Below are positions 10,254-28,784 of a stretch of 64,000 nt of DNA, piece after piece. The notes below the pieces were generated by a model. That model searched no databases. It was not told the DNA's origin and worked only from the letters and a program-made list of their open reading frames with translations. Within the stretch, counting starts at the first letter, position 1. Each line of letters starts with the position of its first letter. The position numbers and the translations under genes are program-made. The DNA lies in NCBI GenBank assembly GCA_002498125.1, contig DAGG01000027.1:35862-99861 (forward strand). Reading direction: 5' to 3'. This DNA comes from Candidatus Woesearchaeota archaeon UBA525 (lineage in GTDB: Archaea; Nanobdellota; Nanobdellia; Woesearchaeales; UBA525).

Positions 10254-10904
10254 TCAGGCGTAGCGCACATAAGAATCTTGCGGACTATCATGGTTGTTCG
10301 GGTACCAGAGGTCATAGAGCCGCAAGGACAGCTTCCTCCGGTCACGGACCCACGTCTCATCCAGTCCGTTGAAACCCGGCCGCGCTGACTCGATCGTGCT
10401 GTAGAACTCATTCCTGATATTTTCCGGAGCAGTGAAGACATTGAATGCTTCACGCACACCTATCTTCATGCAACCAAACCATCCCTTGCCACGCTCAAGA
10501 CGCCTGGCACGCGCCAGGAGGAGGTACTCGAGATCGACGTAGGCTGTGCGAGCGATATGGAGACCAGAATCCTGACCGGGGACAGGACCAAAACTGGCTG
10601 CGAGGTCAGACTGACGGCTGTACGACAGCACAGGCATCCTGACAGAGTCGTTGACCTGCCACTCGTACTCCTCCATGAGCGGCCCGTCATTGAACCGATG
10701 CGGATAGCGCAAATCGAAGCGCTTGACGAGATCTGTCTTGATGATGCCGAGCGCTGCGGCGACGCGCTCCACAGAGAACGGCTCAGCCAGGAGCAAGTCC
10801 TTCACATTGAGGAGGTCCTTCGGCTGCAGCCCTTGGATGCGAGGCACAACCAGGTACGGGGGGCTACGCTTTTTATAGGTGATGGCAGCCTTCAGTCTCG
10901 CCAC
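10254..10904 (-). CDS. hypothetical protein
   Basis: 216 aa ORF downstream of rpp21; no recognised motif. Confidence 0.4.
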   Translation of the reverse strand: MARLKAAITYKKRSPPYLVVPRIQGLQPKDLLNVKDLLLAEPFSVERVAAALGIIKTDLVKRFDLRYPHRFNDGPLMEEYEWQVNDSVRMPVLSYSRQSDLAASFGPVPGQDSGLHIARTAYVDLEYLLLARARRLERGKGWFGCMKIGVREAFNVFTAPENIRNEFYSTIESARPGFNGLDETWVRDRRKLSLRLYDLWYPNNHDSPQDSYVRYA

Positions 10905-10927
10905 TATGGCAAAACCATATAAATGAC

Positions 10928-12190
10928 ATGTCGGTGGGAGATGGCATGAGAATCCTCGACCTCATCAGGAGAGCCAAGCCGAACAGGACGCTCGTCTTGG
11001 ACGCGACTGCGACCCGCCAATGGCCGCAGCAGCTCGTCGAGCACCAGGGTCTGGACGCGGAGTTCAGGCGCTTCGCTGAGGACATCGAGGAGACCAAGGC
11101 ATCTGTCATCAAGACCGCGCGCCAGCTCACTGACGAGGATGTCCTCGCCGCCATCCCTGACCGTGCGCGGACCATGAACGCGCTCCACGGCAAGGAATAC
11201 TCATCACGCATCACCAAGCTCATGCAGCATGCATCGTTCACCGACATCTTCAGTTTCGACAAGCAGCAGGACGTCTACTTCGAGGCGGTCAATGAATTCA
11301 AGGACCAGACCTCCAAACACACGTCGGTCCTCAAGGAGTTCATGCACGACGAGCTCAAGGCTATCCAGGCACTCCTGCAGCAGCTTGAGGACAAGGTCAT
11401 CAACTTCACGAAGACGCTCGAAGAGCGGCAGTTCCCAGTGATCAGGAGGATCAATGATGCTGTCATCAAGCTCGACCAGCTCGAGGCGAGACAAGAGAAA
11501 TGCCATAGGCTGCTCACGAGCCTGGAGCAGGACCTCAAGCGCACGCAGGAGAAACGCCAGAAAATAGAGGACGGCATCAAGGAGCAGCTCGCGTTCGTGC
11601 GCAATGAGCAGTCGCTCGCAAGCCTCGACCGCCTTCAGGCACTCGAGCAGGAGCTCCATGACATGGCAGAGCAGTACAGGCAGCTCTCGCAGGAGGTGCA
11701 TACAGTCTACCGCAAGAACCCGACACTCGAGCTCACCTCCGAGGTGAAACTAGTGGTTGGTGAACTAGGCAAGGACACTCTACAATTCATCAGCGGCAAC
11801 GCTGAGCAAATCAAGCGCGCCTTCGAAGCGGTGGTCGTACAGTTCGAGGAGGAACGTCCCGCCAATATCCGCACGCTCGTCGAGCGGCTCACGCGCCTGG
11901 CAGGCAGCGTCGAGCAGGACTGCCGCAAGGCGCAGACCTCTGCTCCCGACCAGCGCAGCCTGAAGAAGGAGATGATGAAGGACATCGCTGCGCTGCAAGT
12001 CTATGACAAGCGGCAGTTCCTCATGCGCGCGCAGGCAGAGGAGGACGCCATCAAGCGCAAAGTGGAGTATCTTCAAGCTGAGGTCGATCCGAACAAGCAG
12101 ACTGTTCTTGAGAGGGAGATCAAGGACGCAGCGAAATCAATGGGTGCACTCATCAAGGACGAGCCTGTGCCAATCCAAGAAACCGCATAA
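10928..12190 (+). CDS. coiled-coil protein (420 aa)
   Basis: Long heptad-rich Q/E/L/K sequence; no enzymatic motif. Confidence 0.5.
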   Translation: MSVGDGMRILDLIRRAKPNRTLVLDATATRQWPQQLVEHQGLDAEFRRFAEDIEETKASVIKTARQLTDEDVLAAIPDRARTMNALHGKEYSSRITKLMQHASFTDIFSFDKQQDVYFEAVNEFKDQTSKHTSVLKEFMHDELKAIQALLQQLEDKVINFTKTLEERQFPVIRRINDAVIKLDQLEARQEKCHRLLTSLEQDLKRTQEKRQKIEDGIKEQLAFVRNEQSLASLDRLQALEQELHDMAEQYRQLSQEVHTVYRKNPTLELTSEVKLVVGELGKDTLQFISGNAEQIKRAFEAVVVQFEEERPANIRTLVERLTRLAGSVEQDCRKAQTSAPDQRSLKKEMMKDIAALQVYDKRQFLMRAQAEEDAIKRKVEYLQAEVDPNKQTVLEREIKDAAKSMGALIKDEPVPIQETA

Positions 12191-13387: not shown

Positions 13388-13852
13388 GTGGGCATACACA
13401 CAGTAGATATGGGAAAGCACAAGAGACACAATCAAACGACGCCTCGGTCCAACGACATGCTCAAGCTAGGCATCGGTGTGCTCGGCATCGCCGTGCTCAT
13501 CGGCACGATATTCTTCATCCGCGCGCAGTTCGACCCAAACCCCGGCTTCGAAAACCAAGCAACCTCAGGCGGAGCGCAGATGCAAGACGGCGCGCAAGTC
13601 GTTAATATGGAAGTGACCTCGTTCGACTACCGACCGGCAGACCTGACGGTGAAGCAGGGCGTGCCAGTGAAGTGGGTGATTGATGGCAGCGGAGCGTCAG
13701 GTTGCACGCAGTTCCTCATTGCGCGCGACTTCGGCATCAGCCAACGCATCGTACGTGGAGAAAACATCATCGAGTTCACGCCGACACAGAAAGGGACCTT
13801 TCCGTTCAGCTGCTCCATGAACATGGCACGCGGCACAATCACGGTCGTATGA
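13388..13852 (+). CDS. cupredoxin-like copper-binding protein, membrane anchored
   Basis: TM anchor followed by a beta-rich domain with Cys/Met (GCTQF...FSCSMNM). Stop overlaps the MCO start (ATGA). Confidence 0.45.
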   Translation: MGIHTVDMGKHKRHNQTTPRSNDMLKLGIGVLGIAVLIGTIFFIRAQFDPNPGFENQATSGGAQMQDGAQVVNMEVTSFDYRPADLTVKQGVPVKWVIDGSGASGCTQFLIARDFGISQRIVRGENIIEFTPTQKGTFPFSCSMNMARGTITVV

Positions 13853-15288
13853 GACGCATCATTGCACTAGGACTCCTCATACCGCTCATTCTTGCCTGCT
13901 CGCAGCTCCCGCAAGCCCAACCTCCGCAGGAGATTGTCGTGGGAAACGGCGGAACATTGCAACTGTATGCGGCAGAGGTCGAGAAGACCATCGCAGGCAA
14001 AGAGCAGCGGATGTACGCGTACAACGGGCAGATACCGGGTCCGCGCATACGGGTCACGCAGGGGTCCGGGATTAAGGTGAATTTCACCAACAGCCTCGAC
14101 GAGCCTACCACTGTGCACTGGCACGGCTTACGGCATGATGTCAAGGATGACGGTGTACCCATCATCTCGCAGAAGGAGGTGCAGCCAGGAGAGAGCTTCC
14201 TCTACAATCTCGATTTCCCTGATGAAGGCATCTTCTGGTACCATCCGCACGTCCGAGAAGACCGCCAGCAAGAGCTGGGTCTCTCCGGCAATATCATCGT
14301 GGAGCCCACAGATAATCACTACAGCCAGGTCGAGCACGAGGAATTCCTCGTCCTGGATGATATCTTCCTCGAAAACGGCAAGATTGTCGGATTCGGCGCA
14401 GAGCACGCTAACTTCGCGCTTATGGGACGATACGGCAACATCCACCTCGTGAACGGAGAGGAGAAATACTCGCTGGACGTCGCGCAAGGGGACGCTGTAC
14501 GTTTTTACATCACCGCGGTCTCCAACGTCAGGCCGTTCAACCTGTCGATTGAAGGCGCGACGCTCAAGCTGGTCGGGGGTGACATCGGACGCTATGAACG
14601 TGAAGAACTCATCGATAGCGTCATTATCGGACCGGCCGAACGCTATGTTGTCGAAGCGACGTTCAACGAGCCTGGGGCCTTCCGCATCCGTAACGTCAAC
14701 ATGTGGGACAGCTACGATCTTGGCGAGATACGCGTCAAGCAGAGTGGCAAGAGAAGTGAGAGCGCATTGCGCAGATACAAAGACGTCGAGGCGGACATCG
14801 CTCAGTACCGCGAGCACTTCGACCGTCGTGTCGATGAGACGCTCCGCCTGAGCGTGGAACTCGAGCATGCAGAGGAGATGCGTAGCCTCACGAACATCGA
14901 ATGGGAGGATACAATGGTCGAGGAGAACCGCCACTCCACACCTGAGGACGTACGGTGGATATTGCGTGACGAGCAGACTGGAGCTGAGAACATGGACATA
15001 TCCTACAGGTTCTTGGTAGGCGATGTGAAGAGGATCCGCGTCATCAATGATGCGGAGTCGGCGCATCCCATGCAGCACCTCATCCACATCCACGGGCAGC
15101 GATTCCTCATCCTCGAACAGGATGGTATAAGGAACACCAACATGGTATGGAAAGATACGTTCCTCATCCCCACAGGAAGCTATGTTGATATCATCCTGGA
15201 CGCGAGCAATCCAGGCACGTGGATGACCCACTGCCACATAGCAGAGCACCTAGAAGCGGATATGATGATGACCATGACGGTCGTATGA
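13849..15288 (+). CDS. multicopper oxidase (lipoprotein)
   Basis: HWHG, HPH and HCHIAEH...M copper-ligand motifs; lipobox LILAC signal peptide. Confidence 0.8.
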   Translation: MRRIIALGLLIPLILACSQLPQAQPPQEIVVGNGGTLQLYAAEVEKTIAGKEQRMYAYNGQIPGPRIRVTQGSGIKVNFTNSLDEPTTVHWHGLRHDVKDDGVPIISQKEVQPGESFLYNLDFPDEGIFWYHPHVREDRQQELGLSGNIIVEPTDNHYSQVEHEEFLVLDDIFLENGKIVGFGAEHANFALMGRYGNIHLVNGEEKYSLDVAQGDAVRFYITAVSNVRPFNLSIEGATLKLVGGDIGRYEREELIDSVIIGPAERYVVEATFNEPGAFRIRNVNMWDSYDLGEIRVKQSGKRSESALRRYKDVEADIAQYREHFDRRVDETLRLSVELEHAEEMRSLTNIEWEDTMVEENRHSTPEDVRWILRDEQTGAENMDISYRFLVGDVKRIRVINDAESAHPMQHLIHIHGQRFLILEQDGIRNTNMVWKDTFLIPTGSYVDIILDASNPGTWMTHCHIAEHLEADMMMTMTVV

Positions 15289-15784: not shown

Positions 15785-16252
15785 ATGCAGGACATCAACC
15801 AGAAACTCTTCGGCGCAGTGCTCATAGGACTCGCCCTCATCCTCATGTTCGTCCTCATCTTCGTGAAGATACAGAGCGACAAGGAAGGGGCGTTCCTCTG
15901 CCAAATCGTTGCCGAGAGTCCCGACATGAGCATGGCAGACTGCCCTGCACACAACAGCAGCAACTCCTGGCTCATCATGGTCGCCTTTGGAGTGGCATTC
16001 CTCATGCTCGGCGCGGGAGCATACCTCTCATTGCAGGGCCCTAAAGAACGCAGGACCAAGAAGCTCGACGAGGAAGAGCAGCGCATCGTCGAAATCCTCA
16101 AGCAACGCGAAGGATCCATGTACCAGAGCGACCTCATGAAGGAGCTGGACTATACCAAGGTCCGCATGACCAGGACCCTGGACAAGATGGAGAGCAAGCA
16201 CATACTCGAGCGCAAGCGGCGCGGGATGACGAACATCATCGTCCTCAAGTAG
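15785..16252 (+). CDS. membrane-anchored winged-helix regulator (MarR/TrmB-like)
   Basis: Two TM helices followed by an HTH (IVEILKQREGSMYQSDLMKELDYTKVRMTRTLDKME). Confidence 0.5.
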   Translation: MQDINQKLFGAVLIGLALILMFVLIFVKIQSDKEGAFLCQIVAESPDMSMADCPAHNSSNSWLIMVAFGVAFLMLGAGAYLSLQGPKERRTKKLDEEEQRIVEILKQREGSMYQSDLMKELDYTKVRMTRTLDKMESKHILERKRRGMTNIIVLK

Positions 16253-16413: not shown

Positions 16414-17094
16414 GTGAAAAGAGACAATGCATATACAGTCATCATCGGCCTGATGCTGGCGGCGCTGTTCATCAGCAGCTTCAACATGTATACGTTGAGC
16501 AACCTGGAGATGTCCGCCCAGATGTCAGCCACCACAACGACAGGATCAGTGCAGACCGCGCTTGCGCAGTCGCCATCTGACGTGACGCCGAAGGGCGAGC
16601 CACGCATCTACGGCAAGGAGCTGGGAGTGGCATATGACCACGTGCACGCCAGCAACCCTAAGCTAGCGGATGCGACCATCAACAAGCTGGCAAAGCTCGA
16701 TGTGGACATCCAACTCACCGAGGACCAGAAGGCGCGCTACATCAATATCCTCTACAAGATGGATAACGGCATCTCCTGCGAGTACTGCTGCGGAGCTCGT
16801 GCCATCATCTTCGAGAACGGCGAGCCTGCGTGCGGATGTGCGCACAGCTATGCGATGCGTGGAGTAGCAAAGTACCTTATCACTGAGCACGGCAGCGAGT
16901 TCACCGACGCGCAGATACTAGAAGAAGCCGCGAAATGGAAGACACTCTTCTTCCCGACGCAGTCTGCAGCCAAGGCAGAGATCCTCAAGGCCCAAGGTAT
17001 CGAGCCGAACTACATCAACATCGGCAGCAACAAGTACCGCGGCATTGAGCAGGGCGCCGGCAGCGGCGGCGGCGGAATGGTAGGAGGATGCTAG
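16414..17094 (+). CDS. Cys-rich membrane-anchored protein ending -MVGGC
   Basis: N-terminal TM; CEYCCGARAI...PACGCAH cysteine cluster; Gly-rich tail ending GGGGMVGGC*. Confidence 0.5.
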   Translation: MKRDNAYTVIIGLMLAALFISSFNMYTLSNLEMSAQMSATTTTGSVQTALAQSPSDVTPKGEPRIYGKELGVAYDHVHASNPKLADATINKLAKLDVDIQLTEDQKARYINILYKMDNGISCEYCCGARAIIFENGEPACGCAHSYAMRGVAKYLITEHGSEFTDAQILEEAAKWKTLFFPTQSAAKAEILKAQGIEPNYINIGSNKYRGIEQGAGSGGGGMVGGC

Positions 17095-17103
17095 GTGATA
17101 CAC

Positions 17104-17346
17104 ATGGATGAAGAACATAAATCCCAGAAGTCCAAGCGCAAGACAGAGAGCTCAGCTCTCTTCTACGTCTTGATAGGCATGGTATGCCTGCTGCTCGTCT
17201 TCTCGACGGTGCAGACTGTGCAGATCATGAAGTTCAAGGAGAAAGTGAGCACCGCGAGCAGCGTCACCACTGTGGCGGCAGCAGCGCCAGCAGCGCAAGC
17301 GCCGGCACCGAGACCCGCGGCACCGACAATGGTCGGAGGGTGCTAG
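17104..17346 (+). CDS. small TM protein with Ala/Pro-rich tail ending -MVGGC
   Basis: 80 aa from the internal ATG; one TM helix; ends PTMVGGC*, identical to the upstream protein's C-terminus. Confidence 0.4.
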   Translation: MDEEHKSQKSKRKTESSALFYVLIGMVCLLLVFSTVQTVQIMKFKEKVSTASSVTTVAAAAPAAQAPAPRPAAPTMVGGC

Positions 17347-17347
17347 C

Positions 17348-17806
17348 ATGAAGCGCAACGGCTGGATAGCAACGGCAGCGGTGGCAGTCATCGCTATGGT
17401 GCTCATCTGGTTCGCAGTGAGTCCTGCTGAGGCCTCAGTGCTCGACGGCAAATCCGCTGTCGTGCACAAGGGCGACAGCTGCGGCTGCTGCAATGTGTAC
17501 GTCGGCTATGCAGAGAAGACCATGGCTGTCCAGGTGCTGAACAATGGCGAGGCCATCAAGAACCAGTACAATATCCCGACTGACCTCAGGAGCTGCCACA
17601 CGACAGTGGTCGATGGCTACTTCGTGGAAGGGCATATGCCCCTTGAGGCGATCGAGAAGCTGGTGACTGAGAAGCCCGACATCGCAGGCATCGCGTTGGC
17701 AGGGATGCCGTACGGCAGCCCGGGCATGCCAGGAGCAAAGCAAGGACCGTTCATCGTGTATGCGGTGAACAAGGACGGCACGTACCAGGAGTACATGCGG
17801 ATATGA
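17348..17806 (+). CDS. DUF411/CopG-like metal-binding protein
   Basis: Signal/TM anchor, CGCC motif and conserved His; the family is commonly found in copper-resistance clusters. Confidence 0.6.
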   Translation: MKRNGWIATAAVAVIAMVLIWFAVSPAEASVLDGKSAVVHKGDSCGCCNVYVGYAEKTMAVQVLNNGEAIKNQYNIPTDLRSCHTTVVDGYFVEGHMPLEAIEKLVTEKPDIAGIALAGMPYGSPGMPGAKQGPFIVYAVNKDGTYQEYMRI

Positions 17807-17830: not shown

Positions 17831-18382
17831 ATGAAAGTACCACCAAAAGCGGCATTATTCCCCCTCTCCATCCTTTTTTCCATTCTCTCTTCAATCCAGG
17901 TCCACGCCCACTGCCCGCTATGCACTATGGGTGCGGCGGCAGCAGCAGGCGGCGCGATGTGGCTCGGAGTCAGCGGCACCGTGGTCGCACTCTTCATCGG
18001 AGCGTTCGCGGTCAGCATGGGATTGTGGATCGGCCGCATAATCAAGAAGCAGTACATCCCGCACCAGACTGCGTGGATAACTCTCGTATCGTTCGCGACG
18101 ACAGCATTGCCGGTGCTGCCATTCATGATGTCTGGCACACCCGGCGACTACATCCCTATCTTCATCTCATGGGCGGGGGAGTACGGATCGCTCCTGAACA
18201 GGACGTACCTCATCAATATCCCCCTCATCGCTACGCTCGTCGGAGCAGGCATAGTGCTCGCGGCACCGTGGATGAGCAGGAAGATTACTGACTTGCGCGG
18301 CGAGACCCTGCCATACCAAGGAGTATCGCTCACGCTCATCATCCTCATCATCAGCGCCACGGCGCTCCAACTCATCATATGA
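17831..18382 (+). CDS. membrane protein with HCPLC motif
   Basis: Signal peptide, HAHCPLC motif, multiple TM helices. Confidence 0.45.
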   Translation: MKVPPKAALFPLSILFSILSSIQVHAHCPLCTMGAAAAAGGAMWLGVSGTVVALFIGAFAVSMGLWIGRIIKKQYIPHQTAWITLVSFATTALPVLPFMMSGTPGDYIPIFISWAGEYGSLLNRTYLINIPLIATLVGAGIVLAAPWMSRKITDLRGETLPYQGVSLTLIILIISATALQLII

Positions 18383-18831
18383 CCATGGATCCCATACTCA
18401 TAGCAGTCATCAGCATCACAACGGTATTCGTCGCCATGCTGCTGGTCAAGAAAGCGCTCGAGCGTCTCATCAAGCATCCCCTATGCGCCATATGCGTGGC
18501 TGTCAGCGTCACCTGGCTGACGCTGCTTGCGCTCAACATCATCGGAGCCTTCGATGACAAGGTGCTCATAGCGCTCCTCATGGGCCAGACAATCATAGGG
18601 CTGTACTACCTCATCGAGCAGAAAGCAGCAGAGCAGCTCATGGTGTTCCGCCTGCCACTCCTGCTCACGCTCACAGCAGCAGGGTACAGCATCATCATAG
18701 GCCGGCACTCATATACGACGATGGGATTCCTCGCAGTTGTCTGGGGAGCGTTCCTCGTCATCTTCGCGTTCAAGGACCGCGGCACACGCGCCTGGTTTAA
18801 CCGGGCAGTGGAGTGCTGCAAGAGGTGGTAG
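18379..18831 (+). CDS. membrane protein with CxxC (HPLCAIC) in TM1
   Basis: 4 TM; possible thiol-disulfide or metal-handling role. Confidence 0.45.
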   Translation: MTMDPILIAVISITTVFVAMLLVKKALERLIKHPLCAICVAVSVTWLTLLALNIIGAFDDKVLIALLMGQTIIGLYYLIEQKAAEQLMVFRLPLLLTLTAAGYSIIIGRHSYTTMGFLAVVWGAFLVIFAFKDRGTRAWFNRAVECCKRW

Positions 18832-18833
18832 AT

Positions 18834-18911
18834 ATGGAATGTTGCGGAAGCGATTGCTGTAAGAACAAGAAGGACAAGAAAGAGAAGAAAGAGGGCTGCT
18901 GTGAGAAGTAG
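18834..18911 (+). CDS. 25-aa Cys-rich peptide MECCGSDCCKNKKDKKEKKEGCCEK (metallothionein-like)
   Basis: Manual translation; three CC pairs; absent from the ORF track (<60 aa). Confidence 0.35.
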   Translation: MECCGSDCCKNKKDKKEKKEGCCEK

Positions 18912-19103
18912 CGCCTGGTTCGCCGCATGCGTCGGCATAGCCATCGTCGCGGCAGCGCTGTTCCTCTACACTGAACGGCCTCTCTTCTGGCTCCTGCTCC
19001 TGCTATGCCCTGCCATTCACCTATGGATGATGAAGAATATGCACAAGAGCGCGGACAATGATGGGGATAAGGGCGCAAGGAAGGATAAGCGGAGTTGCCA
19101 CTA

Positions 19104-19691
19104 ATGGACTGCTGCACGAAAAACGGAGAGACGGCGAAACGCAAGAGGCGGGGCGTGAGAGACCATCGACCATTCCTCTGGGGGCTTGGCGCCGCACTCG
19201 CCATGCTCGCGTTTTACACCGCGCTCCTGTCCATCCTGAATTCGCCTGTTCACGCGTGGGATGAGTTCGCGAAGATGTGGTACTGGATCACTGCCATCGC
19301 TCTCGGCTTCGGCCTGCAGATAGGGATGTACGCGCACATCAAGATAACGCTCAAGCACCGCGAGGGCACCGGCGCTGTCGCGGCCAGCGGCGGGATGTCC
19401 GGCGCGGCGATGGCGGCATGCTGCGCGCACCACCTGAGCGAAGTGCTGCCGCTCCTCGGCCTCGCTGCGCTATCGACGTTCCTCGTGCGCTATCAGTCCG
19501 CATTCCTCGCTGTAGGTCTTGCGTCTAACATCATCGGCATCATCATCATGCTGACACACATCAAGAAGCACGGCCTGTATGCGCGCGGGGGGCTGCTCGA
19601 TAGGCTCCTGCGCAAGCAGGACATGCTCCATGCTGCAGCAGCGCTCGCTGTCGGCGCGCTCATCGCGTTCAGCATCATAGGATTCATCTAG
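19104..19691 (+). CDS. membrane protein starting MDCC with internal AACCAHH motif
   Basis: Internal ATG gives MDCCTKNGE...; ~5 TM helices; second vicinal Cys pair. Confidence 0.45.
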   Translation: MDCCTKNGETAKRKRRGVRDHRPFLWGLGAALAMLAFYTALLSILNSPVHAWDEFAKMWYWITAIALGFGLQIGMYAHIKITLKHREGTGAVAASGGMSGAAMAACCAHHLSEVLPLLGLAALSTFLVRYQSAFLAVGLASNIIGIIIMLTHIKKHGLYARGGLLDRLLRKQDMLHAAAALAVGALIAFSIIGFI

Positions 19692-19700
19692 GAGGTAACT

Positions 19701-20141
19701 ATGGAAGAGAAGAACCTTGTCATCGGCCTGTGGACCATCATTGGTATCGGCCTCGTTTTCGCTGCGTACCTGCTCTTCGGGAGCCAGGACACAATCGCTG
19801 CGAGCAACGTACCGGCGGCAGCGCCAGGGAGCATCGTACGCACAGGCACGACAGATGATGGCGACGTAAGCGTCGACCTGACGCCGCTCGGCATCACCGA
19901 CGGGCATCTCGTCTTCGATATGGCGATCAACACCCATTCAGTCGACCTGAGCGGCATTGACCTGACGCGCGCTGCGCAGCTTGAGTACAACGGCAAGAAG
20001 GTGTACGCTGACGGCGCTCCGCAGTTAGGAGGCCATCACATATACGGCGGGCTCACATTCCCGGTCGAAGGCACGCCCCAGAGCTTCACAGTGACCATCA
20101 AGGGCATACCGAAGCAGCAGGAACGGGTCTTCAGGTGGTGA
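19701..20141 (+). CDS. membrane-anchored hypothetical protein
   Basis: SD-like ggagg 8 nt upstream; N-terminal TM followed by a beta-rich domain. Confidence 0.45.
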   Translation: MEEKNLVIGLWTIIGIGLVFAAYLLFGSQDTIAASNVPAAAPGSIVRTGTTDDGDVSVDLTPLGITDGHLVFDMAINTHSVDLSGIDLTRAAQLEYNGKKVYADGAPQLGGHHIYGGLTFPVEGTPQSFTVTIKGIPKQQERVFRW

Positions 20142-21041: not shown

Positions 21042-21815
21042 ATGTTGCCTTATGTGACTATACCATCGTGGAGCATCGGCCCGCTGCACATGAACCTGTA
21101 CGGCGTGATGTTCGCCAGCGGCGTGTTCGTCGCCGCGCTCCTTGCCGAACGTGAGGCGAAACGGCAAGGCTTCAGTGCCGAGATGGTGCAACAGCTGGTG
21201 CTCTGGATGATGCTCGGCATAGTCGTCGGCGCACGGCTATTCTATGTTCTGTTCTACTGGCCCGAGGATCTCCCACGCACGCTCATAGGCACCATCGCAG
21301 TCTGGAAGGGAGGTCTTGCTTTCCTGGGGGGCTTCCTCGGAGCGGTCAGCGCGGGGTATCTGTTCACAAGAGCGAAGAAGCTGCCGTTCTGGCGGCTCGC
21401 AGACATATTCACCATACCTCTCGTGATAGGACACATCATCGGCAGGATAGGTGACTACCTTACAGGAGCGCATCCTGGCGCGATCACAGATCTCCCCTGG
21501 GGCATCCCATTGCATGGAGCGATACGCCACCCGGTGGTCCTCTACGAGATACTCGGGCTTGTCATCATCGTGGCAGCGCTGTTGGTCCTGCGCAAGCGGC
21601 TGCGGGGCGATGGTATGCTATTCACGGCATATGTGACACTCTATGCGCTTCAGCGGCTCATCCTCGATGTGTTCAGAATCCCTGCAACCGATCCCCGCTA
21701 TCTAGGCATGACGCCTACGCAGATGGGCCTGGTCGTAATAGCTGCATTACTCATCATATACCAGTACAGAGGGCGCCGCAAGCAAAGTGCCGGATTCCGC
21801 AAGCGAACAGCATAA
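21042..21815 (+). CDS. lgt: prolipoprotein diacylglyceryl transferase
   Basis: SIGP...YG, GARLFYVLFY, WKGGLAFLGG and GRIGDY signature blocks collinear with E. coli Lgt. Confidence 0.8.
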   Translation: MLPYVTIPSWSIGPLHMNLYGVMFASGVFVAALLAEREAKRQGFSAEMVQQLVLWMMLGIVVGARLFYVLFYWPEDLPRTLIGTIAVWKGGLAFLGGFLGAVSAGYLFTRAKKLPFWRLADIFTIPLVIGHIIGRIGDYLTGAHPGAITDLPWGIPLHGAIRHPVVLYEILGLVIIVAALLVLRKRLRGDGMLFTAYVTLYALQRLILDVFRIPATDPRYLGMTPTQMGLVVIAALLIIYQYRGRRKQSAGFRKRTA

Positions 21816-21840: not shown

Positions 21841-21873
21841 TTTATATACATCATATGATTTTATCTTCATATG
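21841..21873 (+). promoter_or_regulatory. TATA box (TTTATATA) plus CATATGA-n8-TCATATG inverted repeat overlapping the arsR start codon
   Basis: A/T box ~25 nt upstream of ATG 21871 (leaderless arrangement); perfect 7-bp IR at 21852-21858 / 21867-21873. Confidence 0.35.
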
Positions 21874-22191
21874 AAATCTTGTTCATGTATGGGGGGATGC
21901 AAGTGCACAAACTGCAGCTGCAAGAGCTACTCGGCAGTTTTTGAGGCACTCGGAAACCAGAACCGACTGCACATCATCAACGCGCTCCGCAAGGAACCGC
22001 ATAACGTCAGCGAGATCATCGCCAAAACAGGCCTCGAGCAGACGTGCGTATCGCACTGCCTGCGCAAGCTCGAGGAAGGCGGCCTCGTTGATGTAGAACG
22101 CCAAGGGAAATTCAGGGTATACACACTCAACAAGAAGACTGTGGAGCCGCTGCTCCAGGCAATAGACCAGCATACGAAGGTGAAGAGATGA
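21871..22191 (+). CDS. ArsR/SmtB-family metalloregulator with N-terminal Cys cluster
   Basis: MKSCSCMGGCKCTNCSC followed by an ArsR HTH (NRLHIINAL...VSEI). Confidence 0.75.
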   Translation: MKSCSCMGGCKCTNCSCKSYSAVFEALGNQNRLHIINALRKEPHNVSEIIAKTGLEQTCVSHCLRKLEEGGLVDVERQGKFRVYTLNKKTVEPLLQAIDQHTKVKR

Positions 22192-22391
22192 AGACGGACA
22201 TCACAATCAAGGGAATGCACTGCCACAGCTGCGAGATGCTGCTCACCGACGTCCTTTCGGACATCGACGGCGTCGATGAAGCCAAGGTCAGTATCAAGGA
22301 AGGGAGAGCAGAGGTCAAGTACGACCCTGCGAAGACCGATGAGGCAAAGATGCGCGCAGCGATAGAGGCTGAAGGTTACACTACGGAGTAA
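22188..22391 (+). CDS. copZ: copper chaperone CopZ (HMA domain)
   Basis: GMHCHSCE (MxCxxC) motif; 67 aa. Confidence 0.8.
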   Translation: MKTDITIKGMHCHSCEMLLTDVLSDIDGVDEAKVSIKEGRAEVKYDPAKTDEAKMRAAIEAEGYTTE

Positions 22392-22393
22392 AA

Positions 22394-23305
22394 ATGGTCA
22401 CTGAACGCATCACCATCCACGGAACGCATTGCAGCTCCTGCGAGAAGACCATCACGAGGACCCTCGCGAAAGAAGGAGTGAAAGTAGAGAGCATCTCGCA
22501 CAAGACTGGCAAGGCCACGATTACCCACGACAGCATACCGCACGATAGGATAGACGCGATGCTACAGAGCAAAGGATACGGCATCGAAAAGTGCCGCGAT
22601 GGCACTTGCACCCCAGATGACATGCATAAGCACCAACCACTCTCGGAGAAGACATTCGATACTGAGCGCCGCATCATCACCAACGGCATCCTCGCGCTCA
22701 TCATTCTCGTCGCTACGCAGATAGGGCTCGTCTACGCGATATACAGCATCATGCCAGGGTACTCGAGCAAGTACATGCTCCCGCTCATCTATATCCCTGT
22801 GGCGGTGGTCACGAATCTCGTGGCGCTCTGGCACCAGCGCGCTTACCGCCGCGAGGTCAGCTGCATGACCGGCATGATGATCGGCATGACCATCGGCATG
22901 ACGAGCGGCTTCGTCATCGGCGGCATCTCGGGACTGATCAACGGCATGTTCACCGGCTCGGTGATCGGCACAGCGATCGGGATAGCGGCAGGAGTCTACG
23001 CTGGCAGGTGCTGCGGCACCATGGGCATGATGGAAGGCATGATGGCAGGGCTCATGAGCGGCACCATGGGTGCCATGCTCACCGTCATGATGATCGGAGA
23101 CCACGTCGAGGCGTTCCTCATCATCCTCATCGCAATTACTATCCTGATCCTCGCGGGACTCATGCGCGTCACAGTAGAGGAGACACGCGGCTCAGAGAAT
23201 GACGTGAAGCCATGGCCGTTATGGGCGGTGGTAGGAGTAGGGTTCATCGCAATGACAGTGATTAGCGCCGCGATAATGCTCGCGCCAAAGAGCATCTACG
23301 GATAA
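22394..23305 (+). CDS. HMA-domain fused to Met/Gly-rich polytopic membrane protein
   Basis: N-terminal GTHCSSCE HMA motif; TM region with MTGMMIGMTIGMTSG...GRCCGTMGMMEGMMAGLMSGTMG. Confidence 0.55.
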   Translation: MVTERITIHGTHCSSCEKTITRTLAKEGVKVESISHKTGKATITHDSIPHDRIDAMLQSKGYGIEKCRDGTCTPDDMHKHQPLSEKTFDTERRIITNGILALIILVATQIGLVYAIYSIMPGYSSKYMLPLIYIPVAVVTNLVALWHQRAYRREVSCMTGMMIGMTIGMTSGFVIGGISGLINGMFTGSVIGTAIGIAAGVYAGRCCGTMGMMEGMMAGLMSGTMGAMLTVMMIGDHVEAFLIILIAITILILAGLMRVTVEETRGSENDVKPWPLWAVVGVGFIAMTVISAAIMLAPKSIYG

Positions 23306-23309
23306 GACG

Positions 23310-25604
23310 ATGGACCATTCAAAGCACCTAGCCAGAGACCACCCTACACCGCCCGCTGAAGACGCTCTCTCTGCAAAGCCGGCAGAACAAAGCAAGGTCA
23401 CGAAACTCAGCATCGAGGGCATGCACTGTGCGAGCTGCGCGAACATCATCACGAGAGGACTGAGCAAGGTGTCTGGCGTCACGTCAGCAAACGTGAACTA
23501 CGGCACGCACAAGGCGACAGTCACGCACGACCCCTCGGTCTCCGATGCGCAGCTCATCGCAGCAGTGAAATCGAAAGGGTACGGCGCGAGCACTATAACG
23601 GGCGACGAGGACCCTGAACTGCAGCAGAAACGCGAGCGCGCGGAGTACGATGCCCTTAAGCACCTATTCATAATCTCAACGATCTTCGCCACGCCTGCGC
23701 TCATCCTCGGCATGCTCTTCATGGAGGACAGTTTCCTCTTCATCGGCTACAGCCTGCCGCACATCGCAATCGTACTCTTCCTGCTCGCGACACCGGTACA
23801 GTTCTACGTCGGCGCCATGTTCTACAAGGGCGCATGGGCCGCACTGCGCAATAGCACAGCGAACATGGATTCGCTCATCGCGCTCGGCACGAGCGCCGCA
23901 TACCTATACAGCGTCTATCTCGTATTCGTCGCAAGGGAGATGACACAGTACTTTGAGATCAGCGCAGTGCTCATCACACTCGTCATCATGGGCAAGCTCC
24001 TCGAGAGCAAGGCCAAGGGGAGGACTTCGGAGGCCATCAAGAAGCTCATGGAACTCTCACCGAAGACCGCGACAGTCCTGCGCGACGGACAGGAGATGGT
24101 CATCGACATCGATGACGTCAAGCCCGGCGACATCGTGCTCGTCAAGCCCGGTGAGCGCGTTCCTGTCGATGGAATGGTCGTCGAAGGGTCGTCATCTGTT
24201 GATGAGAGCATGATCACTGGCGAGAGCATCCCTGTCGAGAAGTTAGAGGGGAGCGAAGTAATCGGCGGCACCATCAACAAGAACGGCAGTCTGAAGTTCA
24301 AGGCGACGAAGGTCGGCGCAAACACGACGCTCGCCAATATCGTTAAACTCATCGAGGACGCGCAAGGCCAGAAGGCACCCATTCAGCGTTTCGCCGACTT
24401 GATCAGCAGCTACTTCGTACCGATAGTGGTCGTCATTGCGCTCTTGACTTTCAGCACATGGTACTGGATGATCGGCCAACCATTCGGCTTCGCGCTCCAG
24501 ACCGCTATCGCTGTGCTCGTCATCGCATGCCCCTGCGCGCTCGGCCTCGCCACCCCCACCGCCATCATGGTCGGGACAGGTAAGGGAGCGCAAAACGGCA
24601 TCCTCATCAAAGGAGGAGAGGCGCTTGAGACTGCGCACAAGGTGCGCGCAATAGTCTTCGACAAGACCGGTACACTCACGGAAGGCAAGCCGCAGGTCAC
24701 TGACATCGTCCCGCTCCACGGCCTCTCGGAGAAACAATTCCTGCACATCGCTGCGAGCATCGAAAAGCACAGTGAGCACCCGCTCGCAGACGCTATCGTG
24801 CGCCATGCGCATGAGCACAAGGTACCGCTCGTCGCAGCGACGCACTTCAAGGCCATCCCTGGTTACGGCATCACCGCAAATGTGGAACACCATACGTTCC
24901 ATTTCGGTAACCTACGCCTGATGCAACAGCAGAACGTGCACATGGATGAGTCGTTGCAGCAGGTCGCGGATCTTGAGAGCGCAGGCAAGACAGTGATGTT
25001 CCTCGCCACAGGCCAAAAACTTGCAGGTATGATCGCTGTTGCCGACACCATCAAGGAGACGACGCCGGCAGCAGTCGCGAAGCTGCGCAAGATGCACGTC
25101 GAGGTCTACATGATCACCGGCGATAATCGCAGGACAGCGGAAGCGATAGCGCGCCAGGCGGGCATCAAGGCAGAGAACGTGTTCGCAGAGGTCCTGCCGC
25201 AGGACAAAGCAGCGCATGTCGCCAAGCTTCAGGAAGGCGGCCGCAAGGTCGCGATGGTCGGCGATGGCATCAACGATGCTCCAGCTCTCGCCAAGGCCGA
25301 CATCGGCATCGCGATGGGCAGCGGCACTGACGTCGCGATGGAGACTGGTAATGTGGTGCTCATGCGTAACGACCTCTCGGACGTACCGCGTGCGCTGCGG
25401 CTCTCGCGGCTCACAATGAGCAAGATCCGCCAAAACATGTTCTGGGCGCTTATCTACAATATTATTGGCATCCCTATCGCTGCAGGACTGCTCTACTACA
25501 GCACCGGCTGGCTGCTCTCGCCGATCCTCGCTGGCGCTGCGATGGCGCTCAGCTCGGTGAGCGTCGTGAGCAACTCGCTGCTGCTGAAGGCAAAGAGACT
25601 ATAG
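23310..25604 (+). CDS. copA: copper-translocating P1B-type ATPase
   Basis: N-terminal HMA (GMHCASC); CPC (IACPCALGLATP); DKTGTLT; GDGINDAP. Confidence 0.9.
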   Translation: MDHSKHLARDHPTPPAEDALSAKPAEQSKVTKLSIEGMHCASCANIITRGLSKVSGVTSANVNYGTHKATVTHDPSVSDAQLIAAVKSKGYGASTITGDEDPELQQKRERAEYDALKHLFIISTIFATPALILGMLFMEDSFLFIGYSLPHIAIVLFLLATPVQFYVGAMFYKGAWAALRNSTANMDSLIALGTSAAYLYSVYLVFVAREMTQYFEISAVLITLVIMGKLLESKAKGRTSEAIKKLMELSPKTATVLRDGQEMVIDIDDVKPGDIVLVKPGERVPVDGMVVEGSSSVDESMITGESIPVEKLEGSEVIGGTINKNGSLKFKATKVGANTTLANIVKLIEDAQGQKAPIQRFADLISSYFVPIVVVIALLTFSTWYWMIGQPFGFALQTAIAVLVIACPCALGLATPTAIMVGTGKGAQNGILIKGGEALETAHKVRAIVFDKTGTLTEGKPQVTDIVPLHGLSEKQFLHIAASIEKHSEHPLADAIVRHAHEHKVPLVAATHFKAIPGYGITANVEHHTFHFGNLRLMQQQNVHMDESLQQVADLESAGKTVMFLATGQKLAGMIAVADTIKETTPAAVAKLRKMHVEVYMITGDNRRTAEAIARQAGIKAENVFAEVLPQDKAAHVAKLQEGGRKVAMVGDGINDAPALAKADIGIAMGSGTDVAMETGNVVLMRNDLSDVPRALRLSRLTMSKIRQNMFWALIYNIIGIPIAAGLLYYSTGWLLSPILAGAAMALSSVSVVSNSLLLKAKRL

Positions 25605-25613
25605 GAGGACAAC

Positions 25614-26057
25614 ATGAAGAACACAGCACTTATCATCGCCGCACTGCTCATGATTATCGGCACCATCGCGTACATAGCGACCGGCGCTTACAAGGCACCG
25701 GAGATGGAGAGCCAAGGTCTTACCTTGTTCCCGGATGGGGAAGGAGAGCGGCTCTTTATCATGACCTCGCCTGAGGGACACATCAAGTTCTTCTACGAGA
25801 GCGCTGTGCCTATCGGCGAGCCGCGCGAAGGGTCTGCAGATGGTTACAGGACGCAGGATATCGATGGAGTAACGTACCAGCCGGTGCTCATCGGTAGCGC
25901 AGAGGCCGCAATGATGCGAGAGGAAAAACTCTTCTCGCAGCCAGGCGACACCATCAGCGGGTTCTTCGGCCAGGACGTCATCGTCGTAGGCGTGCTCGAG
26001 GAGACAGGCACATCGCTTGACATGATGCACGTGGTCCTACCTGGAGTGTTCCGTTGA
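25614..26057 (+). CDS. membrane-anchored hypothetical protein
   Basis: SD ggagg upstream; one TM. Confidence 0.4.
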   Translation: MKNTALIIAALLMIIGTIAYIATGAYKAPEMESQGLTLFPDGEGERLFIMTSPEGHIKFFYESAVPIGEPREGSADGYRTQDIDGVTYQPVLIGSAEAAMMREEKLFSQPGDTISGFFGQDVIVVGVLEETGTSLDMMHVVLPGVFR

Positions 26058-26428
26058 GAGCGCTGGGCGCGGTAATGCTCGCACTGCTACTTACTGCGTG
26101 CGCACAAACGCCCGCTGAGCGGCAGCAGGACCTCTCCCCCGAGCAGTTCAGAGAGTACATCTCGAATGACGGCGTCTTCGTCATCGACGTCCACATCCCT
26201 GAGCAGCAGCACATCCCCGGCACAGATGCTGTGATTCCGTATAACGAGCTGCGCATGCAATCACGGTCGCTGCCAGATGACCGGGATACCTCTATCGCAA
26301 TCTACTGCCGAAGCGGCAGCATGAGCGAGGAAGCGATGCAGACGTTCAAGGAAATGGGCTACACCGACGTCGTCCACCTCGAGGGCGGCCTGAACGCCTG
26401 GCAGGCGGCAGGTTATGAGGTAAAATGA
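26054..26428 (+). CDS. rhodanese-domain sulfurtransferase (lipoprotein)
   Basis: Lipobox LLLTAC; catalytic loop CRSGSMS. Confidence 0.7.
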   Translation: MRALGAVMLALLLTACAQTPAERQQDLSPEQFREYISNDGVFVIDVHIPEQQHIPGTDAVIPYNELRMQSRSLPDDRDTSIAIYCRSGSMSEEAMQTFKEMGYTDVVHLEGGLNAWQAAGYEVK

Positions 26429-27629: not shown

Positions 27630-28784
27630 TTAGATATTCCTGCACAGCCGCAGCATGTGCTCCTGCTCGTCGACCTCGACGGCCCAGACCTGGACCTTCC
27701 CCTTGGAGAGCTGGACAGGCATCTCCTTCTCGAGCGCCGCTGGGTCGATCTCTATGCCGAACTCCTGCAGATCACGCAGGATACGCTCGCGCATGCGCGG
27801 GGCGCGCGGCATCCCGCCTGAGAGCACGATGCAGTCAACTCCACCTAACACTGCGAGGTACGCACCGAGGTACTTGCGCATGCGGTAGGCGAAGAGGTCA
27901 AGCGCGAATGCTGCAACCTTATCGCCAGCGCGTTCGCGCTGAAGGAGCTTACGCACGTCCGGCTCGCCGGCGATACCCTTGAGACCGCTCTCCTTCTCGA
28001 GCATGTCGAGCACAGCCTCCGGAGTCATGCTGGCGTGATGCGCGAGGTAGATGACCGCCGCAGGGTCGATATCGCCGCTGCGCGTCCCCATGACGAGGCC
28101 TTCGAGCGGCGTGAGTCCCATTGATGTGTCAATGCTGCGGCCGTCCTTGATTGCGCATAGGCTCGCGCCGTTTCCCAACTGACAGGTGATGGCGCGAGAG
28201 AACTTGCGGCCGGCAAGACGCTCTGCCTCAAGCAGCATCGCTTCGTGCGCGAGACCGTGGAATCCATAGCGGTAGATGCCGTGCTTGCGCGCGACATCGA
28301 TTGGTATCGCGTAGGTGCGCGCGACCTCCGGCATCTTGCGGTGGAACATAGTGTCGAAGCAGGCGATATGCTTGGCCTCGGTGCTCTGCATGAACGCCTT
28401 GATGAGCCCGATGCTCGGCGGGAGATGGAGCGGCGAGAGTGGTATGAGTATCTCGAGTTCCTTGAGGATGTGAGGCGTGACGATGACGGGAGCATCGTGG
28501 TACTCGCCGTGCGTCACGCGATGAATGATGCGTGTCGGCCGCACGCTGTCGCAGAGCTTGAGTATGACCTTACCTGCATGGTTGTAAGTCGCGACCTTCT
28601 CATCGCAGGTAATCACTTCGCCGCGATGGCGCGCCTCAATCACCGTTTCGCCGCCTATCGCGTCGATGACTCCGTCAAGGAGGATATCATCGTGGCCTCC
28701 ATGACCGCGTTCGTAAAGGCGGAACTTCACGCTCGAGCTGCCAGCATTCAGGATGAGCGTGGGCTCAATGCCACTTCCAGCCAT
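27630..28784 (-). CDS. ackA: acetate kinase
   Basis: ILNAGSSSVKF N-terminus and YGFHGLAHE motif; start trimmed to the internal MAGSGIEPT Met. Confidence 0.85.
   Translation of the reverse strand: MAGSGIEPTLILNAGSSSVKFRLYERGHGGHDDILLDGVIDAIGGETVIEARHRGEVITCDEKVATYNHAGKVILKLCDSVRPTRIIHRVTHGEYHDAPVIVTPHILKELEILIPLSPLHLPPSIGLIKAFMQSTEAKHIACFDTMFHRKMPEVARTYAIPIDVARKHGIYRYGFHGLAHEAMLLEAERLAGRKFSRAITCQLGNGASLCAIKDGRSIDTSMGLTPLEGLVMGTRSGDIDPAAVIYLAHHASMTPEAVLDMLEKESGLKGIAGEPDVRKLLQRERAGDKVAAFALDLFAYRMRKYLGAYLAVLGGVDCIVLSGGMPRAPRMRERILRDLQEFGIEIDPAALEKEMPVQLSKGKVQVWAVEVDEQEHMLRLCRNI

Follow-up and report, generated by a model that had tools for sequence, protein, structure and literature searches.

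We analyzed a 64,000-nucleotide stretch of an assembly of Candidatus Woesearchaeota archaeon UBA525 (GCA_002498125.1; contig DAGG01000027.1, positions 35,862 to 99,861; hereafter, the window), in which two adjacent genes, ORF A and ORF B (ORF, open reading frame), encode proteins with the same five C-terminal residues, MVGGC (the tail). The contig also encodes ribosomal protein S3Ae and a RIO/Bud32-type kinase, indicating that the window is archaeal. In the ORF list of the window, ORF A (16414..17094, + strand) encodes 226 aa from a GTG start and is identical to a public gene call (P0001; 100% identity over the full length). ORF B encodes 80 aa from an ATG (17104..17346, + strand) or 83 aa from a GTG (17095..17346), and the public gene call (P0121) agrees with the 80-aa form. 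Both ORFs terminate in MVGGC with a TAG stop directly after the Cys codon, and their tail codons lie at 17077..17091 (A) and 17329..17343 (B). The two genes comprise the following features (TM, transmembrane).

16414..17094, + strand: ORF A, a type II membrane protein of a new Cys-rich family, with a Gly/Ser linker and an MVGGC end
16438..16506, + strand: residues 9-31 of A, the N-terminal membrane anchor, and a conserved polar exit motif that reads FNMYTL here and FNSYQL in the consensus, with N24 at least 90% conserved
16777..16791, + strand: CEYCC motif of A (C122, C125, and C126), the first half of an invariant Cys cluster
16831..16845, + strand: CGCAH motif of A (C140, C142, and H144), which completes the Cys cluster and lies where helix 143-159 begins
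17050..17076, + strand: Gly/Ser-rich flexible linker of A (QGAGSGGGG), recognized from the composition and length variation of its homologues
17077..17094, + strand: tail MVGGC of A and its TAG stop, seen in the sequence, in a six-frame census, and in homologues
17104..17346, + strand: ORF B, with a basic cytoplasmic N terminus, one TM helix, a VQTVQI exit motif, an Ala/Pro-rich linker, and MVGGC
17329..17346, + strand: tail MVGGC of B and its TAG stop, the start codon of the next gene following 1 nt later

These coordinates and sequences agree with a sequence-only reading of the window, which had described two neighboring membrane-anchored proteins, the first of them Cys-rich, with an identical end and a stop right after the terminal Cys. 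Each protein has one strongly hydrophobic N-terminal segment, and A contains five invariant domain cysteines in addition to the terminal one. Among the 890 stop-to-stop ORFs of at least 40 aa in the six frames of the window, only A and B end in GGC, and the computed chance that any neighboring gene pair in the window has a common five-residue ending is ~7e-5. Since the two tails differ in synonymous codons (GTA/GTC and GGA/GGG), one is not simply a DNA copy of the other. The region was also scanned for promoters and terminators, Rfam families, and tRNAs, with no result relevant to the tail.

Distribution of the tail in A and its small partners

A homology search with A against 5.8 billion proteins (E<=1e-3) yielded 1985 homologues, of which the named ones are mostly labeled as DPANN archaea (Woese- and Nanoarchaeota and Diapherotrites), with one labeled Bacteroidia. 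The tails of the best 120 of these 1985 relatives, which are 51-70% identical to A (the self-hit alone being closer), read MVGGC in 117 cases, MIGGC in 2, and TVGGC in 1. Ahead of the tail, these proteins have a Gly/Ser/Ala/Gln-rich linker that varies in length and sequence between fixed flanks, and no Pfam domain is recorded for any of the 120. A profile search of 1.84 billion cluster representatives recovered only 303 related clusters, indicating that the A superfamily is small and sharply delimited. In the best 150 representatives (50% identity), the C terminus is MVGGC in 72, another xxGGC (mostly QVGGC) in 37, and another terminal-Cys variant in 17 (MVGAC, MVGSC, MVGDC, MVGEC, WVGDC, and others); the other 24 are, for the most part, truncated or a few residues longer. 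The general form of the tail is therefore [MQW][VAI]G[GASDE]C-COOH (126 of the 150), with [LIM]-P-x ahead of it in most clades. Tails with 1 to 15 extra residues were observed at 10901..11185 of locus L032 and in the gene calls P0138, P0140, P0259, P0262, and P0270 (...MVGGCQRDGRRT, ...MAGACG, and ...QIGGCG, for example); such tails reflect errors in sequencing or in stop codons, or else they indicate that the need for a free carboxylate is not strict.

An A relative is encoded by 285 species, and we examined 80 loci from species-representative genomes (+-10 kb around A). These loci contain 169 ORFs ending in GGC, the next commonest three-residue ending occurring at most 33 times. About half of the 169 are A proteins; the rest are small, lie nearly all directly downstream on the same strand, and number one to three per locus. 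The strict CGCAHS motif of A is absent from 96 of these ORFs, and 92 were retained as small partners after size filtering. ORF B is one of these partners by position and plan. A homology search with its single sequence returned only itself, and a profile built from 35 of its positional equivalents retrieved 642 proteins. Within the 35-protein alignment, the initiator Met, Q37 and Q40 at the TM exit, and the tail are conserved, and nothing else is. Weak Pfam matches of B to FliL and GltJ were dismissed as low-complexity noise.

The partners follow a common plan: an optional basic cytoplasmic N terminus (sometimes with a CC motif), one TM helix, a linker, and the tail. The helix terminates in a polar motif such as VQAFQI in two-thirds of them, and the linker (16-191 residues) is a low-complexity stretch of A/S/G/T/P/Q, in which the motifs WTExEKMNYEMHGTIPAR (23 of 96) and ETYEEMMARMHPDQV (12 of 96) recur. 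Met/His patterns like these are typical of periplasmic Cu(I) sites. A TM-exit motif of the form [NQ]-x-x-Q is common to A (N24) and the partners (Q37/Q40). Since A has the related exit motif FNSYQL and the partners display the same anchor-linker-tail plan, ORF B would in effect be "A without the domain." We also observed a cytoplasmic N-terminal motif, D/E-C-C followed by a K/E-rich stretch (MPLMDCCTKNG, MSDCCKTKGKK, MEDCCKPDND, and MNCCTKETK), which recurs in membrane proteins of the surrounding gene islands (19095..19130 in the window; from 4169 in L045, 7918 in L024, 1388 in L035, and 2458 in L066; and others) and in ~15-20% of the small tail-bearing partners.

Positively charged residues are unevenly distributed around the single helix. 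Per 15 residues, K+R averages ~2.2-2.3 on the N-terminal side and ~1.0 on the C-terminal side (2.3 versus 0.9 for A), and the N-terminal side is the richer one in 50 A proteins versus 5 and in 53 small partners versus 18. This bias predicts an N-in topology, which places the tail, as well as the A ectodomain, outside the cell.

Where A carries a variant tail, its partner usually carries the same variant, as in the following loci.

L047: A tail MAGAC, partner tail MAGAC
L065 and L071: A tail QVGGC, partner tail QVGGC
L080: A tail MVGDC, partner tail MVGDC
L216 and L222: A tail QVGGC, partner tail QVGGC

Mismatches occur in L035 and L076, and the matching is significant in a 2x2 Fisher test (p=2.4e-5). 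In the second large clade (clade 2), both A and its partner end in an extended form, [DN]LPxMVGGC. The tails of A and its partner are identical at the DNA level in L047 and L065, where gene conversion may contribute, and show synonymous differences in L071 and L080. These differences led us to reject gene conversion as the sole cause of the matching, and they indicate that the match is upheld at the protein level. In addition, an A protein without the tail lies beside a tailed partner in L038 and L070, as do the long clade-3 proteins, likewise tail-less, in L033 and L073, suggesting that the tail can be supplied in trans. The A domain is the only component that always co-occurs with the tail. 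Together, the matching and the supply in trans suggest a dedicated reader of the tail.

We also scanned a metagenome collection, independently of protein family, for an 18-mer encoding MVGGC-TAA. The 155 matches, on 120 contigs, include 40 A-superfamily proteins of several clades, 10 contig-end fragments of such proteins, and ~51 small one-TM partners, 41 of which have an A gene on the same contig; the other matches fall in ORFs that are too short or featureless and were taken as chance. No third protein family with the tail was found among the 155 matches, which argues against a general secretion or sorting signal and ties the tail functionally to the A domain. A general sorting signal, one of the roles proposed in the sequence-only reading, was set aside, the tail being confined to one domain superfamily and its adjacent small partners (two to four genes per locus), with no hydrophobic segment after it.

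Four groups of known C-terminal signals were considered and rejected: (i) PGF-CTERM/archaeosortase, LPXTG/sortase, and PEP-CTERM signals, given that the protein stops at the Cys, has no NCBIfam match, and belongs to one superfamily plus partners only; (ii) CaaX/Rab-type prenylation, given the single Cys at the last position and the predicted location outside the cell; (iii) the Gly-Gly tails of ubiquitin-like, ThiS, and SAMP proteins, given that the A domain is all-helical with a small Cys knuckle, that B contains no folded domain, and that both are extracytoplasmic; and (iv) precursors of ribosomally synthesized and posttranslationally modified peptides (RiPPs) with a C-terminal Cys, given that the proteins are TM anchored and no maturase is conserved next to them.

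The proposal that the ending is functional is upheld by its near invariance in homologues that are 50-60% identical, its presence throughout the superfamily, and its co-variation within loci. GGC termini are kept in the homologues of A and occur nowhere else in the window. Homologues lacking the tail and frameshift or assembly errors were the other outcomes to consider, and the result was negative across hundreds of independent assemblies (NCBI, JGI, ENA, and Logan), which differ in their synonymous codons. With the low chance estimate for the window, coincidence or artifact is left with a negligible probability.

The ectodomain of A

The A domain is defined by five Cys and one His. In all clades, the pattern reads [ST]C[ED][YFH]CC[GS], followed after 11 to 14 residues by CGCxH. 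The CxxCC half is invariant in three alignments of A proteins (A1, A2, and A6) and in the 41 superfamily sequences with a CxxCC match, and only one divergent 182-aa paralogue is without it. The CGCAH half is invariant across clades and lies 11 to 14 (rarely 44) residues after CxxCC. The invariant residues of the domain include C140, C142, H144, and R149. We found no Pfam match for A at E<=0.01 (for 24 members, none at E<=10) and no NCBIfam match, and a sequence search of the PDB with the A profile returned only noise (E>0.4). Neither A nor B matches PF04214 (DUF411) or Pfam HMA; the HMA proteins of the island described below are separate genes.

An AlphaFold2 model of A based on an alignment of 120 sequences has a mean pLDDT of 87.9. 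It contains a TM helix (residues 4-36), a disordered spacer, and a helical domain that includes helix 103-118, directly after which lies the invariant CEYC(C). CxxCC sits in a small beta-knuckle, and CGC is at the start of helix 143-159. The last two blocks of the tail have pLDDT values of 86 and 85 in a clade-2 model and 74 and 69 in the window protein, compared with 42-52 for truly disordered spacers; in the models, this suggests that the tail packs against the domain in a defined, docked conformation.

According to the model, the ectodomain would be a new Cys5-His domain with a helical core resembling CcmH. CcmH is a membrane-tethered, periplasmic thiol-disulfide oxidoreductase of System I cytochrome c maturation; it engages a cysteine motif of its client polypeptide and is served by a thioredoxin-fold partner. 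The modeled A domain has the three-helix-bundle periplasmic fold of CcmH (PDB 2hl7; PF03918). It differs in its motif (CxxCC...CGCxH versus LRCxxC, the Leu-Arg being absent from A), in an extra N-terminal helical part and an inserted Cys knuckle, and in its presumed client, which would be its own or a partner's C-terminal tail instead of a CXXCH heme site. No clusters resembling ccmF, ccmE, or ccmC were found among the conserved neighbors in 81 A loci. We consider this a likeness of fold only and do not assign A to the CcmH family.

Two alternative roles for the tail can be weighed against these features. In the first, the A domain is a Cys/His enzyme of a transpeptidase- or ligase-like kind that recognizes the tail, cleaves off or activates its last Cys, and joins the Gly-Gly end of A and its partners to another surface molecule. 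The strict coupling of domain and tail, the possible supply in trans, the invariant Cys, His, and Arg residues, the position of the tail at the extreme C terminus behind Gly-Gly, and its co-variation within loci would all suit such dedicated processing. However, A shows no likeness in fold or sequence to sortases, archaeosortases, papain-like enzymes, or enzymes of the ubiquitin system; an enzyme carrying its own substrate tail would be unusual; and outside the cell, thioester chemistry would be the sole energy source, with no candidate acceptor at hand. We regard this alternative as improbable.

In the second alternative, which we give an equally small probability, the role is purely structural: A and its partners are stapled together in a membrane complex through their terminal Cys residues, either by permanent disulfides between the proteins or by a metal bridge that they share, with no carrier or relay function. 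An identical motif on proteins that are expected to associate, the [NQ]-x-x-Q exit motif common to them, and the matched variants, which are compatible with a symmetric tail-tail contact, speak for such a staple. A long flexible linker that varies from 16 to 191 residues would nevertheless make a poor one, tail-less A proteins occur beside tailed partners, the tail conformation is confidently predicted in the AlphaFold2 monomer, and the thioredoxin-type neighbors described below point to reversible thiol chemistry.

The copper-resistance island and the Lgt homologue

A and B lie within a putative operon that is part of a copper-resistance island. The other features of this island are as follows.

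13702..15288, + strand: multicopper oxidase (Pfam Cu-oxidase_3, Cu-oxidase_2, and Cu-oxidase; E=3.6e-34, 1.1e-26, and 1.1e-13)
15785..16252, + strand: protein with two TM helices, a conserved outside loop (C-x18-CPAH), and a DUF7343/MarR-like winged helix in the cytoplasm (Pfam DUF7343, E=1.5e-12)
17348..17806, + strand: DUF411/CopG-type protein with a CGCC motif, directly downstream of B (Pfam DUF411, E=1.1e-23)
17831..18382, + strand: membrane protein with a signal peptide and an AHCPLC motif, recognized from conserved gene order; no Pfam family
18379..18831, + strand: membrane protein with CAIC in TM2 and a C-terminal CCKRW (clusters c8/c6, in 19 + 30 loci, at offsets of +3 to +7); no Pfam family
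18901..19104, + strand: DUF2933 protein of 67 aa between two operon genes (E=4.7e-6)
19095..19691, + strand: membrane protein with an N-terminal DCC and an in-membrane CCAHH, conserved as a pair with the next protein (cluster c4, 45 loci); no Pfam family
19701..20141, + strand: "GGHH" protein with a beta-rich ectodomain, fused to the CCAHH membrane protein in L033; no Pfam family
21042..21815, + strand: full-length homologue of Lgt (prolipoprotein diacylglyceryl transferase; Pfam LGT, E=5.3e-51)
21871..25604, + strand: ArsR-type regulator, HMA protein (CopZ-like), HMA-membrane protein, and Cu-type P1B ATPase (Pfam HTH_5, HMA, and E1-E2_ATPase)

The multicopper oxidase likely starts near 13849, judging from its sequence, rather than at the upstream TTG of the listed ORF. 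The product of 15785..16252 is probably a membrane-bound one-component sensor-regulator for an extracytoplasmic metal or thiol signal. A longer ORF on the opposite strand (18797..19204, - strand), preferred by the crude gene caller, overlaps the DUF2933 gene, of which the + strand version is the likelier to be real. The island also contains genes for a rhodanese and a DUF302 protein. Just beyond it, genes for phosphoketolase (XFP) and acetate kinase adjoin at 27630..31119 (- strand) and form a compact pair for the fermentation of pentose and hexose phosphates to acetate.

When genes were crudely called and clustered across 81 loci, a conserved array emerged, in the order winged-helix membrane protein, A, partner(s), DUF411/CopG protein, AHCPLC protein, CxxC/CC membrane protein, and "CCxHH" and "GGHH" proteins. 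The winged-helix protein occurs in 65 of the 81 loci, usually directly upstream of A, and the cluster containing DUF411 (c1, which also holds a fusion-linked membrane protein) likewise occurs in 65, at offsets of +2 or +3. A heterogeneous single-linkage cluster of HMA proteins and P-type ATPases (c5) is present in 44. Other loci contain DsbA-like proteins and Met/His-rich secreted proteins near A, and in other A clades the place of DUF411 after the partner goes to two proteins, one thioredoxin-like and one with multiple thioredoxin domains (Pfam Thioredoxin_3, E=7.5e-9).

Three further observations were made in these neighborhoods. A fusion protein in L053 (11106..12302) joins DUF411 to a multi-pass membrane domain that has a Cys in the first helix (..GIHPCTISVLLFF..) and by eye resembles thiol transporters of the CcdA/DsbD type, a hint that DUF411 may be linked to a path for electrons or metal across the membrane. 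An Aminotran_5 gene of the cysteine-desulfurase type lies just downstream of the A operon in L221 (2289..3497; tail MRGGC) and L222 (3741..4907; tail QVGGC), a possible sulfur or persulfide link. The Met/His-rich secreted proteins (repeats MHxxMHG and MMGMM) stand beside A in several lineages (L216, 1398..1709; L218, 1202..1444; L222, 3421..3723; and cluster c10, e.g., L057, 10612..11115) and look like copper or silver sponges.

Two described copper systems resemble parts of this arrangement. CopG, which is found beside multicopper oxidases and copA, binds a Cu4 cluster via CxCC and two Met residues and is involved in anaerobic copper resistance (PMC7558416). A comparable vicinal-Cys motif (CxxCC) is present in the A domain, and a DUF411 protein with CGCC is its conserved downstream neighbor, whereas CopG has a thioredoxin fold with no C-terminal Cys tail described, and A and B are not DUF411 members. 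CutF-like proteins (DUF2946; Rhodobacter cutFOG) are small, exported, and poorly conserved, are encoded beside a multicopper oxidase and a CopG homologue, and retain only a Cys motif and a short C-terminal motif, both of which are essential (PMC8456105). They follow the same design logic as the small partners and are their nearest functional analogue. The two are not homologous: CutF-like proteins are proteobacterial, have a central CxxxC/CxxC and a C-terminal Pro-Pro, and are soluble after signal-peptide cleavage, whereas the partners are archaeal, TM anchored, and end in a single Cys (B has no central Cys pair, ends in VGGC, and has no Pfam match).

The Lgt homologue, 3.7 kb downstream, brings in the main rival to a thiol-based role: the tail as a C-terminal lipobox whose Cys is S-lipidated by the island Lgt homologue or by the archaeal AliA/AliB, giving the protein a second membrane anchor, or its sole anchor if the N-terminal helix is cleaved. 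Looser lipobox patterns of the PROSITE type admit G at position -2. The lipobox is given as [LVI][ASTVI][GAS]C in a 2025 paper according to which no archaeal Lgt homologue has been identified (PMC12462473). V-G-[GAS]-C of the tail would occupy positions -3 to +1, its G at -2 fitting the looser pattern only, and G, A, and S dominate position -1. Three further full-length Lgt homologues were found on DPANN contigs (L034, 13317..14162; L049, 1966..2760; and L073, 3119..3886), so that Lgt lies within 10 kb of A, inside same-strand gene arrays, in four loci; a rough Poisson estimate, which assumes one Lgt per 1-Mb genome, gives p ~0.03 for this proximity. In L034, Lgt is the last gene of an array that runs A, partner, DUF411, and so on to DsbA; in L073, it lies directly upstream of a clade-3 A, a partner ending in NLPSMVGGC, and a thioredoxin protein. 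In an alignment with Escherichia coli Lgt, the catalytic residues Y26, R143, G154, and R239 are kept in all four copies. The strict invariance of a short motif is, moreover, typical of enzyme recognition.

On the other side, the four loci are just 4 of 81 neighborhoods. Three copies retain H103, N146, and E151 of E. coli Lgt; in the window copy, these are replaced by L, D, and A, respectively. Two island proteins carry classical N-terminal lipoboxes, namely, the multicopper oxidase (LILAC; 13849..13899, MRRIIALGLLIPLILAC...) and the rhodanese (LLTAC; 26054..26428, MRALGAVMLALLLTAC...), which would give Lgt an ordinary job. A lipobox normally follows the membrane-embedded core of a signal peptide, whereas the tail follows a polar linker, 16-191 residues past the only hydrophobic segment. 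D or E at -1 (MVGDC, WVGDC, and MVGEC) falls outside the lipobox pattern, and a general lipidation signal would be expected on many proteins, yet the tail occurs only with the A domain. The lineage-specific co-variation of tails is also hard to reconcile with a housekeeping enzyme that serves all lipoproteins. Overall, lipidation of the tail appears unlikely. A more elaborate form, in which a lipobox moved to the extreme C terminus is lipidated by the island Lgt while the CcmH-like A domain presents the tail or keeps it reduced, is more doubtful still.

A possible role for the terminal thiol

Arms with a C-terminal thiol are known from thioredoxin reductase (-GCUG), MerA (a C-terminal Cys pair), and Ctr1 (-HCH), where they supply a buried Cys site with electrons or a thiophilic metal ion. 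The MVGGC tail resembles them in having a short Cys motif at the extreme C terminus, on a flexible segment with small residues nearby. Those arms belong to large enzymes or transporters, lie in the cytoplasm, and mostly have two chalcogen ligands, whereas the MVGGC arm has a single Cys, is extracytoplasmic, and also occurs as a free-standing mini-protein. By analogy, there would be precedents for such a device, with its thiol arm at the C terminus, its reader of the CcmH type, and its setting in a copper island.

The sequence-only reading had offered C-terminal processing, lipidation, metal ligation, and sorting without choosing among them. A metal-ligating or redox thiol fits best, given the copper-island context, the Met/His motifs of the partners, the thioredoxin-fold neighbors, and the CcmH-like domain; lipidation has the pattern match and the nearby Lgt homologue in its favor and the counterpoints given above against it. 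We tentatively propose, at slightly less than an even chance for the composite, that the tail provides a tethered terminal thiol on the extracytoplasmic side, that this thiol docks on the CcmH-like Cys domain, and that it serves as a Cu(I) carrier, as a participant in thiol exchange, or as both. The core of this proposal, i.e., a functional thiol read by the A domain in a metal or thiol context, carries more weight with us than the composite, and Cu(I) specifically carries less.

In such a mechanism, MVGGC would be the working end of a flexible, membrane-tethered arm outside the cell, whose terminal Cys presents its thiol beside a free carboxylate and whose two preceding Gly residues would let the chain enter a narrow pocket. 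Across DPANN archaea, the module would consist of two parts, A with its Cys5-His ectodomain and one to three "arm-only" proteins, and the tails would dock on the A domain at its Cys cluster, in cis for A itself and in trans for the partners. Judging from their spacing, C122, C125, C140, and C142 may form a structural four-Cys knuckle, and C126 and H144 could then complete, with the incoming tail Cys, a Cys2-His site of the Cu(I)-binding kind; alternatively, the tail may form a transient mixed disulfide with the vicinal Cys pair. The terminal thiol would take or give Cu(I), either direction of transfer being compatible with the model. The DUF411/CopG protein or CxxC thioredoxins, together with the Cys-bearing membrane proteins, might keep the arm reduced or accept the metal, and the upstream membrane-bound winged-helix sensor may switch the whole operon.

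Several points weigh against this proposal, beside the presence of Lgt homologues in the window island and in L034, L049, and L073. The supposed contact between the terminal Cys and the Cys cluster is deduced from pLDDT values. A Foldseek search of the A model against the PDB gave nothing below E=1. Alignment of the 120 A sequences by hhalign with 10 CcmH/NrfF sequences from E. coli and plasmid records gave a probability of 0.4%, E. coli CcmH alone was also without support, and the only aligned stretch, which pairs CEYC(C) with the CPKC of CcmH, is without significance; it is for these results and the Pfam searches that we claim only a resemblance of fold. The A domains of lineages with variant tails show a few scattered changes and no compensatory pattern. 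Gln replaces Met at position -5 in ~30% of the representative clusters, and Trp does so in a few, indicating that Met is no obligatory Cu ligand; this weakens a simple Met-plus-Cys chelate and favors recognition of the peptide as such. The near-invariant Val-Gly-Gly would also fit recognition by an enzyme. Finally, the sequence is silent on the identity of the metal and on metal versus redox chemistry.

A full-text literature search for MVGGC found unrelated papers only, and a search of the literature on DPANN archaea, copper, and Cys-rich proteins found nothing relevant; the motif, the A domain family, the mini-protein partners, and the matching rule thus appear to be undescribed. Whichever reading holds, the Lgt homologues on archaeal contigs bear directly on the statement that archaea have none (PMC12462473). 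Should the C-terminal lipobox be real, it would represent the first functional bacterial-type Lgt chemistry in Archaea and the first thioether lipid anchoring by the last residue of a protein, and it would change the picture of archaeal lipoprotein biogenesis.

The genomes of DPANN archaea are tiny, and most of their genes are unannotated. The module described here occurs in at least 285 species-level genomes and ranks with the most sharply conserved features of the DPANN cell surface, yet it has been neither named, nor modeled in Pfam or NCBIfam, nor described in the literature. Three things emerge from it: a new family of Cys-rich ectodomains whose core is predicted to be CcmH-like; mini-proteins consisting of hardly anything besides a membrane anchor and a thiol tail of five residues; and a rule by which the tails within one genome must match. 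If the tail does act as a thiol arm, the module would show how organisms without a periplasm tether copper or thiol carriers to their membrane, and it would provide a compact, testable model of peptide-tail recognition.

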